Shown piece after piece: positions 3,905 through 19,475 of a DNA stretch of 46,613 nucleotides. Position 1 is the first letter of the stretch; every line of letters begins with the position of its first letter. The notes under the pieces were generated by a model. The model searched no databases and was not told the origin of the DNA. It saw nothing but the letters and a program-made list of their open reading frames with translations. The position numbers and the translations under genes are program-made. Origin of the DNA: Minisyncoccota bacterium (lineage in GTDB: Bacteria > Patescibacteriota > Minisyncoccia > Phycocordibacterales > UBA918); the NCBI GenBank assembly GCA_043750495.1, contig JAYVBM010000014.1, forward strand, positions 1-46,613. Direction: 5' to 3'.

Positions 3905-5281
3905 TTATTCAATCGCGCCTGCTTCAGTTGCGGCCTCTGACTCTCCAGGCAATGTCTCTGTTGAGGTGGTAGCGGACTCTTGAGGGAACGCCTGAGTCCC
4001 GACGGCGCTTGAAGTGTTGATGCCGGAAGCATTTACGAGAAGGAGCGCATCACTCAATATCGCATTACTTTCTTTAGCGAGCTTGAGCGCGCTAGCAACT
4101 TCAGTAGTGGAGGCGATTATATTTTTATTGGCAAGAGAAACCTCCAGTGAGTAGTCTACCTTTTCGGCTAACGCTAAAGAAAACTGCGGCATTAAAGTCT
4201 TAAGAATCTCTTGTTTTCGATACACTTCAGACGACACGCGTGAAAGTTCTTGTTTTTGTTCCTCTTCAGTCAAGATAATCGGCACAATCGTTTCAAGTGC
4301 AATCGCGCGATTGGCTTCTATGTCGCTCATGTACACTACTAATTTTTGCGTCTGTTGAAGTACCTCAACTAGTTGTTCACTGGCTGAAATTTCGTTTTCT
4401 CCGCGGAGACTTTTTGATTTTTCTATACTACGATTTACATCTTCAAGCCGCCGATTGAGATCTTGACGTAGCTGATCATCGGGTCCAATTGAAAGAGAGC
4501 TGAGCAATTCATACGCTCGGGTGGTGTTGATTTCTACCCGCGCCATGATTTTGTCGTAGGCTGGGATGCCAGCTGACTCGACCTGGGATTCGTTGGCCGA
4601 GAGCGACTCATTAATTACATCGACAACCATTTGAGCTGGATTGCCAGAAGCGACGTCGTTCATCGCGAGTGCCAAGGTCGTATTTCCCTCTTCTTGAAGT
4701 GACGCTGATTGTAGCTCCAAAGTAGTCGTGAGTTGGATTGAAGCAAGAGTGGCCTGATCAACGTCGCTTTCTCGCATGACATCAATCTCGTGCTGCACGA
4801 TTTCGGTGTGTTCTTTTACGGCAGCAGCAATTTCTGCTTCCACTTCGTTCGTGAGCTTACCTTCATTAGCCAAAAGACGGGCTTCAGAGATTCGGCGGTT
4901 AATGCGCTCGGTCTCCCATTCGACTTTTCCGTATGAAGTTAAAGTCAGAGTACTACGCACCTCTTCACTAAACCGAACTTTCACTGCGTATAGATTGTCG
5001 CCTGGCACGGCCTGCTCGGCCAAAACTGGCACCACGACGAGCAAAAATGCCGCTGCGGCCGCTGACCACTTTAATACTATTGAAAAAGGAATTTGGACGA
5101 TATTATAAGGAGAGAGGGCCGCCATTTGAATGGGACTCTTGACTGACTTCCTTAGTGCTGGGGTCTGCAGTGGGTGATATTCCATATACGAAACAACCCG
5201 CGCGCGCAGTTCACGTCGTTCAGCCGCCTGTAGCTTTACAGTAGTGGCTTTTGTATGAAGTTGTTCGCTAAAGCGTTTCAT
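3905..5281 (-). CDS. putative anti-sigma factor / membrane protein (DUF5667-like)
   Basis: Starts 2 nt after the ECF sigma stop. It has a single TM (AAAAAFLLVVVPVLA) and a long helical extracytoplasmic part. The role is inferred from position. Confidence 0.5.
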   Translation of the reverse strand: MKRFSEQLHTKATTVKLQAAERRELRARVVSYMEYHPLQTPALRKSVKSPIQMAALSPYNIVQIPFSIVLKWSAAAAAFLLVVVPVLAEQAVPGDNLYAVKVRFSEEVRSTLTLTSYGKVEWETERINRRISEARLLANEGKLTNEVEAEIAAAVKEHTEIVQHEIDVMRESDVDQATLASIQLTTTLELQSASLQEEGNTTLALAMNDVASGNPAQMVVDVINESLSANESQVESAGIPAYDKIMARVEINTTRAYELLSSLSIGPDDQLRQDLNRRLEDVNRSIEKSKSLRGENEISASEQLVEVLQQTQKLVVYMSDIEANRAIALETIVPIILTEEEQKQELSRVSSEVYRKQEILKTLMPQFSLALAEKVDYSLEVSLANKNIIASTTEVASALKLAKESNAILSDALLLVNASGINTSSAVGTQAFPQESATTSTETLPGESEAATEAGAIE

Positions 5282-5283
5282 GA

Positions 5284-5916
5284 TTATTTTTTCTTGGTGC
5301 GGTTCTTTTCTGCCTGGACATCTTGACCCTCTATTTTTTGCCGAAGCATTTTAAGGCCACGGTGGATTCGGACAGAAACCACATTCTCAGATTCCTCTAT
5401 AAGTTCACTGATTTCACGCGGACCGAGCTGGTCGACAAAGCGTAAAATGATCACTTCTTTGTACTGATCAGGTAGTTCATCAAGTAATTCAAAGGCCTTT
5501 TTGCCATCGATTGTCGCCGCCAGGGCCTCGGCTGTACTTTCTGACAACTCGTCAAATGAGCCCTCGTCCACTCCATCAAGCTCAAATAAGGCATCCAAGG
5601 ATGACTCTTTTCGGCGCCGATACTCGTCAATTATTAGATTGTTGAGTACTTTATATAAAAATGGCCGAAACGTGTCGATTTCATACCCATTTCGTAGGTA
5701 GGTCCAGACCTTGGTAAAAGTGTCATGGACCAAATCTACCGCTTTCTCTCTGTTACTAACGCGCAAAAACGCATGCCGAAACAAGGCGTCATTGAACTCA
5801 TCAAACGCTTTCAAAAAGCGCTCCTCCTGGTTTTCCTCTATGTCGTGTGTCTTCCTAACTCCCGGCATGTGGAAACCATTATACGCGAAGACGCTGGAAA
5901 AGCCGAAGTCTTTCAT
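5284..5916 (-). CDS. ECF-type RNA polymerase sigma-70 family factor
   Basis: Region 2 (AVDLVHDTFTKVWTYL..FRPFLYKVLNNLIIDEYRRR) and region 4 HTH (PREISELIEESENVVSVRIHRGLKMLR). The start could also be the internal Met at 5868. Confidence 0.85.
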   Translation of the reverse strand: MKDFGFSSVFAYNGFHMPGVRKTHDIEENQEERFLKAFDEFNDALFRHAFLRVSNREKAVDLVHDTFTKVWTYLRNGYEIDTFRPFLYKVLNNLIIDEYRRRKESSLDALFELDGVDEGSFDELSESTAEALAATIDGKKAFELLDELPDQYKEVIILRFVDQLGPREISELIEESENVVSVRIHRGLKMLRQKIEGQDVQAEKNRTKKK

Positions 5917-9593: not shown

Positions 9594-9663
9594 GTCTCAA
9601 TCATATCACAAAGTTGCGACAATATGTTTCACGTGGCACGTATTAAGCATGTTTCATATGGAA

Positions 9664-10113
9664 CTAGCTGATAATAATGTTTGGAATATACTTTACTGTA
9701 GCATATTTCTCACGTGGCACAATTCTGACCGCTATTACATCGATTTGCCAATCATCCTTGCAATTATGTTCCAAAAGCCAGCTTTCAAGGGTACGATTTA
9801 GTTTTAATATCTTGCTGGAGTGAACATTTTCTTCTGGTCGCCAAGTTCCATATGAAACGGCTTTCTCTAGATCAGTCTTAGTTTCATATGAAACTGTTTT
9901 TACCTCAACAAAGTGAATAATGACCTTATTTATAATAGTTTCACGTGACACTACATCAATTTCACCCCATTTTTTAAGGTAATTTTTGTCCAGGATGGTG
10001 TGGCCTAGCTTTTTCAGGTAATTGGCCGCGATTTCCTCACCATATCCACCAACTCTATTCTTAGCTCCTTTTTTATTAGCCTGTTTCATATGGCACGCTT
10101 CTGCGTGTTTCAT
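9664..10113 (-). CDS. yraN: YraN-family (UPF0102) endonuclease-like protein
   Basis: GEEIAANYLKKLGHTILDKNY..GEIDVV...VEVK signature. A second possible start is at 10089. Confidence 0.75.
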   Translation of the reverse strand: MKHAEACHMKQANKKGAKNRVGGYGEEIAANYLKKLGHTILDKNYLKKWGEIDVVSRETIINKVIIHFVEVKTVSYETKTDLEKAVSYGTWRPEENVHSSKILKLNRTLESWLLEHNCKDDWQIDVIAVRIVPREKYATVKYIPNIIIS

Positions 10114-10170
10114 GTGAAATTATAACAGTTAAGTTAGCCTTGCTGATTAAACCTTATAAACATGTCTATT

Positions 10171-10238
10171 ATAAAGGACATCAAGACTGAATGTCGCAAA
10201 ATTTGTCCTTTATCCACCTATCCACTCGGTTATCCCCA
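10171..10238 (+). promoter_or_regulatory. motif cluster: 10-bp inverted repeat ATAAAGGACA/TGTCCTTTAT followed by three DnaA-box-like 9-mers
   Basis: ATAAAGGACA 10171-10180; TGTCCTTTAT 10204-10213; TTATCCACC 10210-10218; CTATCCACT 10218-10226; TTATCCCCA 10230-10238. Confidence 0.5.
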
Positions 10239-10240
10239 AT

Positions 10241-10280
10241 TATAACAAGGCCCGCACATTTCCGTGCGGGCCTTGTTATA
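10241..10280 (-). terminator. perfect 17-bp hairpin after the 10289-10630 gene
   Basis: tataacaaggcccgcac-atttcc-gtgcgggccttgttata. Confidence 0.65.
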
Positions 10281-15978: not shown

Positions 15979-17454
15979 GTGGTGAAAATTAGTAATGCTG
16001 ACATACCGCTCGTTGTACGGCAGACGGCTGAGACGCTGGAAAACGCTGGGTTTGAGGCGTATTTGGTGGGGGGTTGTGTTCGTGATTTGTTGCGGGGCAA
16101 GACTCCAAAGGACTGGGACCTGACTACCGACGCGCATCCTGAGCAAATACAGGAACTCTTTGTGGAACACTATGCTAACAACGACTTTGGAACAATTGGA
16201 GTCAAAACTGAGTCTGAAGACCCTACCCTAGCGGTCATAGAAATCACTCCCTACCGTAGTGAAAGCGGTTACACGGACCTGCGCCGGCCGGATACCGTTA
16301 CTTTTGGTGTTTCACTCGACGAGGACCTCAGTCGCCGAGATTTCACCATTAATGCTCTGGCCTATCGTCCAAAGACAGATACGTTGGTGGACCATTTTGG
16401 GGGCATGGAGGATTTGGCGGCAAAACGTCTCAAAACAGTAGGGGATGCTCATGAGCGATTCAACGAAGACGCCCTGCGCATGATGCGGGCGGTTCGTCTC
16501 GCAGCTGAGCTGGGTTTTGTGATTGAGTCGGCGACTATGACCGCCATCAGTGAAAATAGCTTGCTTTTAAAGCGTATTTCGATCGAACGAGTAGCTGCGG
16601 AGTTCATTCGTATCATCAATTCGGGCGAACCAATGCAAGGAGTTATGCTTCTAGAAAAGTTTGGTTTGTTAGAACACTTCATTCCAGAACTACAGGCTGG
16701 TATCGGCTGCGATCAAAGCGGGATCCACGCCTTTGATGTGTATGAACACAACCTACGCACTCTTCAGGCCGCAGCAGACAAAGACTTTCCCGAACACGTG
16801 CGGATTGCTGCGCTGTTTCATGACATTGGCAAACCCGCCACTAGACGAACTGGTGGTAAAAGTAAGCATTATACTTTCTTCGGACATGAAGTAGTGGGTG
16901 CCAGAATGACCAAGAGCATCCTTGAGCGCCTTAAATTACCGCGTGAAACTATTGATACTGTTGTAAATCTGGTCAGGTGGCACATGTTTTTCTCTGACCC
17001 TGAGCTTATTACACTGGCGGCTGTACGTAGGACTATAGTACGAATCGGGGAAGACCACATCGACGACCTCTTGAATCTTAGAGTCTGCGACCGCATTGGT
17101 ACTGGCCGACCCAAAGAACAACCGTTTCGCTTCCGCAAATACAAGGCGATGGTGGATGAAGCACTACGTGACCCGATTTCGGTAAAAATGCTTAAAATCA
17201 ACGGGGACCAGATCATGGCCAAGACCGACGAAAAGCCTGGAAGGCGGCTAGGCTATGTTTTAAACGCACTTCTAGAAGAAGCTTTAGAGGATAGTACTAA
17301 AAATACTGAGGAATATATGGGAAAAAGGGCCTTGGAACTACTCACTTTAGACGAAGCTGCACTCATAGAGCTATCAGAAGCGGGTAAGCGTAAGCAAGCT
17401 GAAGAGGAGGCTACAGCTCTAAGAGACATCGCAAGAGAGCATAAAGTGGGGTAG
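15979..17454 (+). CDS. cca: CCA-adding tRNA nucleotidyltransferase with HD domain
   Basis: GGCVRDLLRGKTPKDWDLTT plus RRDFTINA (PolyA_pol head) and HDIGKP (HD). TGcTAGAAT at 15967-15975 would fit a leaderless start at the second GTG (15982). Confidence 0.85.
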   Translation: MVKISNADIPLVVRQTAETLENAGFEAYLVGGCVRDLLRGKTPKDWDLTTDAHPEQIQELFVEHYANNDFGTIGVKTESEDPTLAVIEITPYRSESGYTDLRRPDTVTFGVSLDEDLSRRDFTINALAYRPKTDTLVDHFGGMEDLAAKRLKTVGDAHERFNEDALRMMRAVRLAAELGFVIESATMTAISENSLLLKRISIERVAAEFIRIINSGEPMQGVMLLEKFGLLEHFIPELQAGIGCDQSGIHAFDVYEHNLRTLQAAADKDFPEHVRIAALFHDIGKPATRRTGGKSKHYTFFGHEVVGARMTKSILERLKLPRETIDTVVNLVRWHMFFSDPELITLAAVRRTIVRIGEDHIDDLLNLRVCDRIGTGRPKEQPFRFRKYKAMVDEALRDPISVKMLKINGDQIMAKTDEKPGRRLGYVLNALLEEALEDSTKNTEEYMGKRALELLTLDEAALIELSEAGKRKQAEEEATALRDIAREHKVG

Positions 17455-18012
17455 TGTCCTTTAATACAAAAGGAGATCCAGTAAGACTGAATCTCCGAAA
17501 GGTGTCAGGCGATCAGGGTCGTGCCCTAATCAGCTGTACCTCAACACCATGGAATGCCTTGACTATCCTTCTTTCGTCAGATTTTATTGCCAAATACATT
17601 TACCCGCGCCATTGAGGACTTGACTCTCCTAACGGAGACCTGACCCTTGTTCCAGATGTCGACTCACGATCAGATTTGACTGCTCGAGTCCTTGTCGCTC
17701 AAAACCGGAGGTGCTACCCCAAGCCGGATATGGATTTTCAACCATCCCTGACGACTGTATGCGTGGAATTGTGTGTTCTGGAGACCACACTCATCGGTGC
17801 CGCAAGGCTTAATCGACAGCCACATGATAGCATATAGTGAAATAATGTCAAGGGGTCACTATTTAAGCCCCATCTTAGTCAAACAAATAAAATTGGCTGA
17901 CTGGATGAAATTCAAGGTATGCGAAGAAAATGCTCTGAGTGCTATGCCTATAGAGCGAAGAGCATTTTGCTGAAGCATAACGAAGAAGTTCGCCAGTCAG
18001 TCGGTTTTATAT

Positions 18013-18071
18013 AAAAAAGGCCTGAGGAGTCGTGCGACAAGTGTGCTTGTCATCCGACTTCTCAGGCCTTT
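18013..18071. terminator. long imperfect hairpin flanked by A6 and T runs (strongest as a minus-strand terminator)
   Basis: ggcctgaggagtcg..gacaag-tgtg-cttgtc..cgacttctcaggcc: 14-bp stem, internal loop, then a 6-bp stem. Confidence 0.65.
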
Positions 18072-18498
18072 GATTAAAGAGCTGTTTTTTGGAGGATTAT
18101 AGTAATCCAAGTGCGCGCCTATTTGGCTATGGCTAACGCTATCCGAAGCTCTACGTTGTTTGAAATCTTATAGTGATGAATCTTTGTAAGTTTCATCTGA
18201 CTTCTGGGGGTGGGTGTTATGTTTATGAACGTTAGATATTGGAGGTAATATCTTTGTTGGATTTTGGAAGATCTCTTTAAGGGGTACCCCCTGGGACTTG
18301 GTGAGAAATGTTTCTTCTCAAGTCTCAGGAGATTCCTGCTCGCCCTTTCTGGGCCTGCATAGATAATATGTCCTTTACAATATTTCGTAAAGGACAACGC
18401 AGGGGATAAGTGGGGATAACTTGTCCTTTAAAAAATTGACACTCTGGTTTTGACAAATTTAAGAATCGTGTGATTCTGTTTTTGTCTATTTAACCTTG

Positions 18499-19293
18499 CT
18501 AATCAAGGCCAATATCTATAGACACTGGGCAGTGATCGCTTCCGTAGACGTCTGCATGGATGCGTGCACTTTTGACAAGTGGTGCCAAATCTTTTGATAT
18601 CATCACGTAGTCAATCCGCCAACCAACATTGCGCTCGCGCGCATTACCAAAATGTGACCACCACGTGTAGCCTCCATTTTCCTGATTGAAGATACGAAAG
18701 CTATCGATAAAGTTTTTCTTTATCATGGCATCAAAGCCACTGCGCTCTTCGTCGGTGAATCCTTTCTTGCCACGATTCTCTTTGGGTCGGGCGAGGTCCA
18801 GTTCGGTGTGCGCGACATTGAAGTCACCACAGAAGATAACCGGCTTCTCTTGTTGAAGTCTATCCATGTATTCGAGAAAGGCAGGATCCCAGGCCTGACG
18901 CATCGGAATGCGAGAAAGGTCGTCTTTGGCGTTTGGGGTATAGACGGTCGCTACATAAAATCCCTCAAACTCCGCAACAAGGACTCGACCCTCTTTGGTA
19001 GTGTCGCCATGGCTGTCGGCCAGTTGGTACTTGGCGCAAATGTCTTCCGGTAAGCCATTTATAACTTCAAGTGGAGGTATTTTGGTGAAAATTGCCGTCC
19101 CAGAATAGCCTTTTTTCTCAGCGGAACACCAATATTCCTCATAATTAGGTAAATCAACGTCAATTTGGTCTTGACTGGCCTTAGTTTCTTGAATACAGAG
19201 GATATCCGGTTGGTGTTTTTCAATAAATGGCACCAAATCGCCCTTTCGAGCCACCGCACGAATCCCGTTCATATTCCAAGAATAGATTTTCAT
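18499..19293 (-). CDS. xth: exodeoxyribonuclease III (Xth/APE1 family)
   Basis: MKIYSWNMNGIRA..CIQETK..GDFNVAH..SDHCPV motifs. Start taken at ATG 19293. Confidence 0.85.
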   Translation of the reverse strand: MKIYSWNMNGIRAVARKGDLVPFIEKHQPDILCIQETKASQDQIDVDLPNYEEYWCSAEKKGYSGTAIFTKIPPLEVINGLPEDICAKYQLADSHGDTTKEGRVLVAEFEGFYVATVYTPNAKDDLSRIPMRQAWDPAFLEYMDRLQQEKPVIFCGDFNVAHTELDLARPKENRGKKGFTDEERSGFDAMIKKNFIDSFRIFNQENGGYTWWSHFGNARERNVGWRIDYVMISKDLAPLVKSARIHADVYGSDHCPVSIDIGLD

Positions 19294-19475
19294 CCCGCTG
19301 CACAGATTGATGCTGCTGGCACGCGGTGCCAGCGTGTCCATGTATTAAAACCCTTTTTCACAACGCTATAATATCACTTATATTTGACTTCAGCACTAAC
19401 ACAGGATCAATACTTGCTGAGGGATTCATGGCTCAAGTCTACCGCATTACTAAAAAAGTTCGAATTTTATAAATT

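Follow-up and report, generated by a model that had tools for sequence, protein, structure and literature searches.

We examined a 46,613-nt contig of a Minisyncoccota bacterium (JAYVBM010000014.1, assembly GCA_043750495.1; hereafter the window), in which 1044 nt (17455–18498) separate the convergent genes cca and xth. Gene calls and domain matches agree on this spacer. cca (15979–17454, plus strand) encodes a PolyA_pol head domain (E = 8.9e-37) and an HD domain, and xth (18499–19341, minus strand) encodes an Exo_endo_phos domain (E = 6.7e-34). An earlier inspection of the letters alone (the sequence-only reading) had proposed that the spacer holds one or two noncoding RNAs (ncRNAs), a decayed gene or a replication-related locus. 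Every motif that it described is present where it was placed or a few bases away. These motifs include two open reading frames (ORFs) of at least 60 aa (17773–17973, plus strand, GTG start, 66 aa; 18119–18397, minus strand, TTG start, 92 aa), neither of which has a Pfam match, and a central hairpin whose 26-nt arms (18016–18041/18046–18071) are 85% complementary. Two nested pairings (17887–17904/17993–18010 and 17927–17945/17950–17968) both fall inside a single long hairpin (17886–18010). Closer to xth lie a 10-bp inverted repeat (TGTCCTTTAC/GTAAAGGACA, 18369–18378/18387–18396) and two DnaA-box-like 9-mers on the minus strand (TTATCCCCA, 18419–18411; TTATCCCCT, 18409–18401), which are conserved in relatives.

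The right part of the spacer is very probably an independently transcribed gene for a structured ncRNA of ~345 nt, read on the minus strand from 18356 to ~18012 and belonging to a family absent from Rfam 15 (Table 1). The spacer consists of three parts: this ncRNA gene, a 125-nt hairpin (17886–18010) and an indel (17464–17887). An RNA on the minus strand that begins on the xth side and ends at the central hairpin had been anticipated by the sequence-only reading, and its existence is strongly supported. The ~430 nt then proposed shrink to ~345 nt, and the start moves from xth to a separate promoter with +1 at A18356.

Table 1. Features of the cca–xth spacer in window coordinates; functional assignments are predictions.
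Feature	Positions	Strand	Basis or remark
ncRNA gene (probable), ~345 nt	18012..18356	-	+1 at A18356; 3′ end in the U-run past the terminator hairpin
−35 hexamer TTTACG, within invariant TGTCCTTTAC (18396–18387)	18386..18391	-	promoter scan and alignment; 17 nt to the −10 hexamer
−10 hexamer TATTAT	18363..18368	-	promoter scan and alignment of 140 copies
5′ hairpin, stem GCCC/GGGC, pentaloop AGAAA	18342..18354	-	invariant in alignment A1
Long hairpin with variable tip, shortened or absent in some lineages	18280..18340	-	23 of 24 pairs changed on both sides
Single-stranded linker UAAAGAGAUCUUCCAAAA...	18254..18279	-	conserved block
Hairpin exposing the invariant loop UACCUCCA(A) at 18247–18240	18234..18253	-	resembles the anti-Shine-Dalgarno sequence
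Linker AACGUUCAUAAAC ... CCCACCCCC, with C-rich block at 18214–18206	18206..18233	-	conserved blocks
Variable hairpin region, length and sequence dependent on species	18162..18204	-	basal stem covaries by eye (GAAGUC/GAUUUC, GGGAGUC/GACUCCC)
Three-way junction: closing helix 18151–18146/18084–18079; hairpins 18139–18131/18119–18113 and 18108–18103/18099–18094	18079..18151	-	
Intrinsic terminator: hairpin 18071–18016, then U-run 18018–18013	18013..18071	-	covariation and U count
Inverted repeat TGTCCTTTAC-N8-GTAAAGGACA over the −35 hexamer and spacer	18369..18396		candidate operator of a DNA-binding protein
Tandem DnaA-box-like 9-mers TTATCCCCA and TTATCCCCT, starts 10 bp apart, −63 to −45	18401..18419	-	
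Upstream copy of the TGTCCTTTA half-site	18422..18430		window keeps one half of a palindrome
Lone TGTCCTTTA copy abutting the cca stop codon	17455..17463	+	
Imperfect long hairpin, 125 nt	17886..18010		92% identical in locus L001; short pieces in two others
Strain-specific segment	17464..17887		conserved in none of the loci searched

We compared the spacer with 80 loci that were fetched through the cca protein, one per species, and with at least 120 metagenome loci that were gathered by the 19-mer AGGCCCAGARAGGGCGAGC from the 5′ end of the RNA. The RNA family set comprises at least 164 full-length copies, at least 145 of which are distinct. In blastn searches with the gap, the DNA of ~18011–18484 is conserved in nearly all of the 80 species loci, and a core at 18331–18396 reaches 75–98% identity across them. 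This DNA-level conservation persists although the cca proteins of these loci are only 61–93% identical. Within 17455–18010, the only blastn matches are to 17888–18010, in the closest relative (L001). All 65 cca–xth spacers that were extracted from the species loci measure 372–2052 nt. An nhmmer profile of the right half matches every one of them, 58 over nearly its full length (~435 nt), and the profile finds the element in 108 of 120 metagenome loci among the matches listed. Viral contigs searched with the 5′-end 19-mer gave zero matches. Genomes of the Candidate Phyla Radiation (CPR), or Patescibacteria, measure ~0.5–1 Mb and have hardly any spare DNA. Despite such tiny genomes, 372–2052 nt of noncoding sequence have been kept at the cca–xth site in all relatives examined, and the RNA gene adjoining xth accounts for these long gene-free spacers.

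Gene order around the element is also conserved. Among the matches listed, in all 77 metagenome loci with space on both sides, xth precedes the element on its own strand and cca follows it on the other one. This order (xth, then the RNA gene, then cca facing both) recurs in every testable locus of at least 145 distinct copies from Paceibacteria-type CPR bacteria. Its sole exception is locus L052 (8012–9134), where xth and the RNA gene have been flipped together with respect to cca. Distances vary among relatives, from ~100 to >1100 nt between xth and the element and from ~20 to >1100 nt between cca and the element, and the sequence intervening on the cca side is unrelated. In L007, L044, L056, L015 and many other loci, AAATGAGCAAATGCCC stands right after the terminator U-run. 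A small ORF on the minus strand (MSKCP...) seems to begin there, in the interval separating the RNA gene from cca; the window is without AAATGAGCAAATGCCC.

A promoter pattern emerges from the alignment of 140 homologous upstream regions on the conserved 5′ block. TGTCCTTTAC, which contains the −35 element TTTACn, occupies −40 to −31 in 139–140 of the 140 regions. It is followed by a 17-nt spacer and then by T-A-n-n-n-T, with T, A and T each found in 139 of 140 and the middle positions free. The six bases between the −10 element and +1 vary, and from A(+1) onward AGGCCCAGARAGGGCGAGC is invariant in 138–140 of 140. This −35/−10 pattern, with invariance that starts 7 nt after the −10 element, points to a sigma-70-type promoter with +1 at A18356. 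The predicted promoter has the hexamer spacing (17 ± 1 nt), the T1, A2 and T6 of the −10 element and the start ~7 nt farther on that characterize this class.

The opposite end of the element looks like an intrinsic terminator. The lower stem of its hairpin is 86% paired, and 13 of 17 pairs show double changes. The 8 nt past the stem contain a mean of 6.6 U on the minus strand vs 4.6 on the plus strand. A GGCC-clamped, covarying stem followed by 6–7 U, the combination expected of an intrinsic terminator, occurs in 128 of 137 copies.

Contigs of 184–232 nt that are ~90% identical to the window came from eight metatranscriptome runs of several studies. These contigs span 18061/18100 to 18264/18295 at a word depth of 3–31, and contig depth at xth is 0–6 in the first four runs. 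Runs X43 and X44 resemble DNA. In one run, adapter sequence follows 18281, indicating that many cDNAs end there; this carries no strand information. The contig ends match the bases of two large terminal hairpins (~18282 and ~18065). It is possible either that reverse transcription halts at the hairpin bases or that a processed core of ~220 nt is the stable species.

These data bear on whether the element could be a structured 3′ untranslated region (UTR) of xth that is co-transcribed with it and perhaps processed from the mRNA. Such an origin would fit the invariable position of the element downstream of xth on the same strand, the lack of a conserved terminator between the two and a low-depth contig from one RNA run that extends from xth into the DnaA-box region. 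It fits poorly with the invariant −35/−10 pair that intervenes between xth and the RNA, with the onset of conservation at the predicted +1, with the higher depth of the core contigs than of xth and with an xth–element spacing that varies from ~100 to >1100 nt. We therefore consider a 3′ UTR most improbable and treat the element as a gene of its own.

The RNA has about seven helices, and five of them are backed by covariation. The 5′ hairpin (GCCC-AGARA-GGGC) is fixed in the main group and reads GGCC/GGCU in divergent lineages. The loop UACCUCC (UACCUCCAA) is present in 140–144 of 144 sequences; local folding encloses it by a stem in 137 of the 144, and 39 distinct closing stems serve this purpose. 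Conserved linkers (CCCUUAAAGAG..UCUUCCAAAA and AACGUUCAUAACA..CCCACCCC) join the domains. The closing helix of the three-way junction is 92% paired, with CG/UA and UA/CG/AU/GC exchanges, and the second helix is 87% paired. Pair 18107–18095 is canonical in 100% of cases and includes 3 pair types. The helix with the weakest support is that of 18162–18204.

Mutual information with average product correction (MI-APC) was calculated on an E-INS-i alignment of 145 distinct copies. The top pairs are 85–100% canonical, include 3–6 pair types and all lie in the helices named here. The highest-scoring column pair is 18335–18284, in the long 5′ hairpin. The top of the list also includes pairs in the terminator, 18148–18082 and 18147–18083 in the closing helix of the junction, 18131–18119 and 18107–18095.

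We further aligned the 5′ domain (alignment A1, 102 distinct rows) and the 3′ domain (alignment A2) separately. The cells of the proposed helices are paired in 88.7% (5′ domain) and 78.7% (3′ domain) of cases. Double-change cells number 451 in the 5′ domain vs 113 ± 10 after shuffling and 449 in the 3′ domain vs 164 ± 12, and in neither domain did any of 500 shuffles reach the observed count. The covariation score of the 5′ domain is 0.45 (shuffled, 0.15; slid partners, 0.04–0.12) and that of the 3′ domain is 0.29 (shuffled, 0.17; slid partners, 0.06–0.14). RNAalifold alone arrives at identical 5′ helices, and the minus strand of 18357–18010 folds with z = −8.3 relative to 100 shuffles. The comparison of syntenic spacers that the sequence-only reading had recommended thus returned a conserved right half and covarying helices.

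The RNA is rich in A and C (A 35%, C 24%, U 23%, G 19%), and CC[ACU]CC motifs occur 3.0 times per RNA vs 1.0 in shuffles. We found no ORF that is conserved in position or frame across the copies. The longest ORF of a copy measures 45 aa in the median and at least 21 aa, its strand and position vary among copies, and indels are frequent and not multiples of three. A tiny plus-strand ORF past GGAGG proved unconserved in the alignment. Two additional pairings were considered and set aside. A long-range pairing of AACGUU with AACGU, between linker 2 and the stretch before the junction, has changes in L002, L041 and L012 that, judged by eye, are uncompensated. The minimum free energy fold of the single sequence joins the 5′ GAGC to the 3′ GCUC, a pairing that we do not favor: GCUC covaries with the GAGCUU block, and the 5′ GAGC is fixed.

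Four points assign the RNA to the minus strand: the pattern of promoter and +1, the U-run, the lack of a conserved plus-strand promoter and, in L052, the linkage of the element to xth and not to cca. Wobble statistics and folding energy are ambiguous or contrary on the question of strand and were left out of this call. They belong to a set of observations that weigh against our interpretation. First, the RNA contigs are directionless and come from relatives, not from the window strain, and the first ~70 nt and the terminator lie outside their coverage. Second, A·C cells in the minus-strand helices are about as numerous as G·U cells (5′ domain, 170 A·C and 116 G·U; 3′ domain, 256 A·C and 272 G·U), and this symmetry of G·U and A·C is the chief weakness of the strand call. 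Third, the plus strand is the more stable in 137 of 145 copies, by a mean of 19.7 kcal/mol, an excess that is partly compositional because the minus strand is A/C-rich. Finally, several helix positions are conserved as A·C and would be G·U if the plus strand were the RNA (for example A1 columns 41–79, 67 of 102 sequences). The base of the terminator stem clearly favors the minus strand, on which it contains 21 G·U cells and no A·C cell; other stretches favor the plus strand.

Conserved A·C pairs, with A on the 5′ strand and C on the 3′ strand in at least half of the sequences, occur, within helices that are well paired elsewhere, at A1 41/79, A2 168/197 and A2 156–159/206–209. The corresponding window positions are 18325/18294, ~18051/18036 and 18062–18059/18025–18028.

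The stability of the plus strand and the positions that become G·U on it would be explained if the functional transcript were a plus-strand RNA, either antisense or a long 3′ UTR of cca, which does lie upstream on that strand in almost all loci. Yet no conserved promoter is found on the plus side, where conservation begins at the hairpin, and the distance from cca varies from ~20 to >1100 nt. The L001 locus has a terminator-like hairpin immediately past cca, and the element of L052 travels with xth. Read on the plus strand, the hairpin has fewer U behind it, and the wobble pairs at the base of the terminator stem speak for the minus strand. A plus-strand transcript accordingly seems very unlikely, and we retain the minus-strand gene.

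Known RNA families do not account for this gene. When the element was searched against Rfam in the window and 11 relatives, with the OLE, ROOL, GOLLD, raiA and HEARO families included, only tRNAs reached the gathering score. At E ≤ 10, the matches were scattered, chance-level ones to miRNA, snoRNA and sRNA families. RNase P RNA, transfer-messenger RNA (tmRNA), signal recognition particle (SRP) RNA and 6S RNA were absent at E ≤ 10 in searches of 361 and 1351 nt and at E ≤ 5 in 12 relatives. Across the whole window, three tRNAs and nothing else reached the gathering score. The gap thus lacks a match to any of the classes for which the sequence-only reading had advised a search, large ncRNA classes among them.

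A diverged RNase P, tmRNA, SRP or 6S RNA could in principle be overlooked by Rfam models in CPR bacteria. A size of ~345 nt and a location among tRNA genes beside cca would suit RNase P RNA, and CPR RNase P RNAs can fall under Rfam thresholds (PMC8172020). Of 35 circular CPR genomes, 10 were found to be without RNase P RNA at Rfam thresholds and to hold diverged forms (Lui et al., 2021; PMC8172020). Lowered thresholds of RF00010 recovered these diverged RNAs (PMC8172020), yet RF00010 is silent here even at E ≤ 10. RF00010 and RF00011 provide no score, and the covarying structure has neither a P1 helix that joins the ends nor the P4-type long-range helix, CR-I and CR-V, of the GAGGAAAGUCC / ACAGNA...GGCUUA consensus. 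Instead, it has a local hairpin at the 5′ end, a terminator at the 3′ end and only local helices and a three-way junction between them.

The other three classes fare no better. The RNA is without a tRNA-like end, and neither Rfam nor ARAGORN, which detects no tmRNA in the window, finds the tRNA-like domain and tag frame of a tmRNA. The helix 8 motif in a closed hairpin that defines SRP RNA (RF00169, RF01854) is not found at E ≤ 10. The 5′ hairpin (AGGCCCAGAAAGGGCGAGCAGG) bears a superficial likeness to GGUCCGGAAGGAAGCAGC, but it stands at the extreme 5′ end and is without a closing helix. Finally, 6S RNA is a single long, irregular hairpin of ~180–200 nt with a central bubble, whereas the RNA described here has several domains and no RF00013 match. 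We regard an overlooked member of these families as highly unlikely and the RNA as a candidate new Rfam family. Searches of a library of papers found no description of the xth–cca RNA.

The promoter of the RNA gene carries additional conserved motifs. In the family consensus (AGTTATnCACAGTTATnCACA), two perfect DnaA boxes (TTATnCACA twice), with starts 10 bp apart, lie at −65 to −45. The spacer between the promoter hexamers usually holds GTAAAGGACA, and in some species the second half-site forms a direct repeat. These direct-repeat variants fit a DNA site for a protein and not an RNA hairpin. The palindrome of which the window keeps one half is complete in most relatives (TGTCCTTTATAAAGGACA, about −100 to −80). 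Both the inverted repeat and the boxes noticed by the sequence-only reading are real, and they lie upstream of the RNA, as probable DNA control sites, and not within it.

On the basis of these motifs, there is about an even chance that transcription of the RNA is controlled by DnaA, through the tandem boxes at −63 to −45, and by a dimeric protein with the half-site TGTCCTTTA. The dimeric regulator would bind the operator over the −35 element and spacer as well as the upstream palindrome. Further points count against this part of the interpretation. The boxes of the window each have one mismatch to TTATnCACA, DnaA-like 9-mers (consensus TTATNCACA) are not enriched across the window as a whole, and the roles of DnaA and of the operator are read from motifs alone.

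A second module with these motifs was identified ~8 kb from the RNA gene. At 10172–10238, TAAAGGACA is followed after ~23 nt by TGTCCTTTATCCACCTATCCAC..TTATCCCCA. The module is syntenic in many relatives, and these syntenic copies have 2–4 DnaA-like boxes, compared with a background of 0.54 per 450 nt. Three parS-like sites lie nearby (TGTTTCACGTGGCACG at 9625, AGTTTCACGTGACACT at 9937 and TGTTTCATGTGAAATT at 10106), where 0.35 would be expected. The cumulative GC skew of the window has its minimum at ~10–13 kb, and gene orientation switches from minus to plus at ~11.8 kb. The parS-like sites, skew minimum, orientation switch and DnaA-box module mark 9625–10260 as a candidate oriC. The RNA locus itself was considered for this role and rejected: it has only two boxes, its flanking genes are convergent, and the skew minimum is at ~10–13 kb and not at 18.4 kb. 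The module at 10.17–10.24 kb would be the better oriC candidate. Elsewhere in the window (3905–5916, minus strand), the gene of a 210-aa ECF-type sigma factor (Sigma70_r2/r4) precedes that of a DUF5667 protein of 458 aa; the two are likely a sigma/anti-sigma pair.

The recurrence of DnaA boxes and regulator sites at a candidate oriC suggests that expression of the RNA is tied to the replication origin, and the RNA would probably be expressed in step with replication initiation. The same recurrence, next to parS-like sites, the skew minimum and the orientation switch, could be taken to mean that the element works as DNA. It would then be part of a (bipartite) origin or a protein-bound locus with hairpins on both strands, and its transcription would be incidental or origin-activating. 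Conserved tandem DnaA boxes and TGTCCTTTA sites do adjoin the element, and G·U and A·C are near equal, as if neither RNA strand were favored. However, the boxes and palindromes are upstream of +1, and it is the 345 nt downstream that show double substitutions which preserve the helices, and invariant loops, as in an RNA and unlike any known origin element. The pattern of promoter, +1 and terminator is a textbook one, RNA contig depth is well above that of the neighboring gene, and convergent flanking genes are unusual for an origin. We judge a DNA element to be unlikely and the ncRNA gene to be the better explanation.

The left half of the gap is of a different nature. Both of its parts, 17464–17887 and 17886–18010, lie outside the ncRNA gene. 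The second is a lineage-specific long hairpin, with folding energies of −55.5 kcal/mol on the plus strand vs −35.5 kcal/mol on the minus strand. The first has no homologue in 200 related loci, in the rest of the window or in plasmid or phage collections. For 17455–17887, Pfam (ten frames), tblastx against the loci, a self-blast and blastn searches of plasmid and phage sequences found nothing, and matches of the left half to the loci are confined to 17888–18015, chiefly the copy in L001. In DNA run X3, a contig joins an L001-type flank straight to 17888, and in run X1 contigs branch at 17888. These junctions identify 17464–17887 as a strain-level indel. From the TGTCCTTTA copy that adjoins cca to 17888, the sequence is wholly different between strains and relatives. 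At the equivalent spot beside the cca stop codon, L001 has an inverse copy, TAAAGGACA (1847–1855).

Two further suggestions of the sequence-only reading concern this half. A plus-strand RNA of ~560 nt from the cca side finds no backing, as the left half is unconserved across the 200 related loci, 17464–17887 varies between strains as an indel, and in L001 cca is followed by its own terminator-like hairpin. A decayed gene also goes without trace, since Pfam on ten left-half frames and tblastx against the loci returned only the L001 copy of 17888–18015.

Within the segment, a promoter-like site on the minus strand (17851–17824, TTGACA-16-TGcTATCAT, with an extended −10 and near consensus) and a terminator-like hairpin with a U-run (17496–17472, minus strand) bracket ~350 nt of strain-specific sequence. 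A small transcription unit of recent acquisition is one possible reading of the segment, but its fold z is only −2.2.

Gene decay, or a mobile element reduced to a remnant, might alternatively account for the gap or at least for its left part. The window strain has the segment 17464–17887, which an L001-type strain found alongside it lacks, and the segment holds promoter-like and terminator-like signals and a 53-aa ORF. Neither a Pfam domain nor a homologue supports a remnant in the searches above, the segment has no terminal repeats and no second copy in the window, and its fold z is weak. For the right half, a remnant is excluded by the RNA evidence. For the gap as a whole or its left half, this origin is possible but doubtful.

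Several observations implicate the ncRNA in an important and so far undescribed function. These are the essentially invariant first 19 nt, the invariant loop, the promoter with DnaA boxes and a putative operator, and an abundance in metatranscriptome assemblies that is well above that of the neighboring mRNA. The invariant loop UACCUCCAA has six bases (ACCUCC) of the 3′ end of 16S rRNA (GAUCACCUCCUUA), the anti-Shine-Dalgarno sequence. We tentatively propose that the RNA acts through its exposed C-rich segments (UACCUCCAA, CCCACCCC and UCUUCCAAAA), which may pair with or titrate G-rich partners. Candidate partners are mRNAs, at their Shine-Dalgarno regions, or a protein with affinity for the 16S 3′ end that the RNA would sequester. 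In that case the RNA would be a global regulator or a decoy, and not a catalyst. A search of the window for mRNA targets complementary to the loops showed no pattern at gene starts.

As a best guess, the RNA would be coupled to replication and would use its exposed C-rich segments to regulate or to serve as a decoy. A more specific and more speculative proposal is that this lineage-wide RNA is strongly expressed, has a promoter wired to replication through DnaA boxes and the palindromic regulator sites that also occur at the candidate oriC, and displays an anti-Shine-Dalgarno mimic. It would then serve as a global regulator of translation, coupled to replication or the cell cycle, or as a decoy for a ribosome factor. 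If so, it would represent a new functional class of core RNA in the minimal genomes of Paceibacteria-type CPR bacteria. The RNA provides a concrete entry point into gene regulation or replication control in a vast group of uncultured bacteria.

Several known RNAs share some of these properties. RNase P RNA of type A is similar in length, in its neighborhood of tRNA genes and the CCA-adding enzyme and in a variable hairpin that precedes a purine-rich stretch (UAAAGAG); it differs in its P1, P4, CR-I and CR-V sequences, all of which the RNA described here is without. The RsaE/RoxS RNAs and RNAIII of Firmicutes use unpaired UCCC/CCCC loop motifs to target Shine-Dalgarno regions and end in a Rho-independent terminator. 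The RNA described here appears to resemble them in its C-rich loop motifs and in its terminator. RsaE/RoxS are shorter and the architecture of RNAIII is unrelated, whereas the invariant loop UACCUCCAA of the RNA described here copies the ACCUCC of the 16S 3′ end.

The raiA motif RNA, OLE, ROOL and GOLLD resemble this RNA in being stand-alone RNAs with a promoter, a terminator and covarying helices that are joined by conserved single strands. Like them, it is found in one lineage only and has a sequence that gives no evident function. In contrast to them, it has no match in Rfam 15, is mid-sized (~345 nt) and A/C-rich, belongs to CPR/Paceibacteria and occupies a fixed site between xth and the opposing cca, and its promoter carries DnaA boxes together with a palindromic candidate operator.

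Of the RNAs described so far, CcnA of Caulobacter crescentus comes closest. This ncRNA is under the control of a cell-cycle regulator, and DnaA and CtrA boxes surround its gene at the replication origin (PMC8959179). Through a CCCC loop, CcnA base-pairs with GGGG close to where ribosomes bind its target mRNAs (PMC8959179). The RNA described here likewise has DnaA boxes and the sites of a putative second regulator in its promoter, and it has exposed C-rich loops. Its sequence is unrelated to that of CcnA, its structure is much more elaborate, its pairing with mRNAs is a prediction, and its gene lies ~8 kb from a candidate origin and not inside it.

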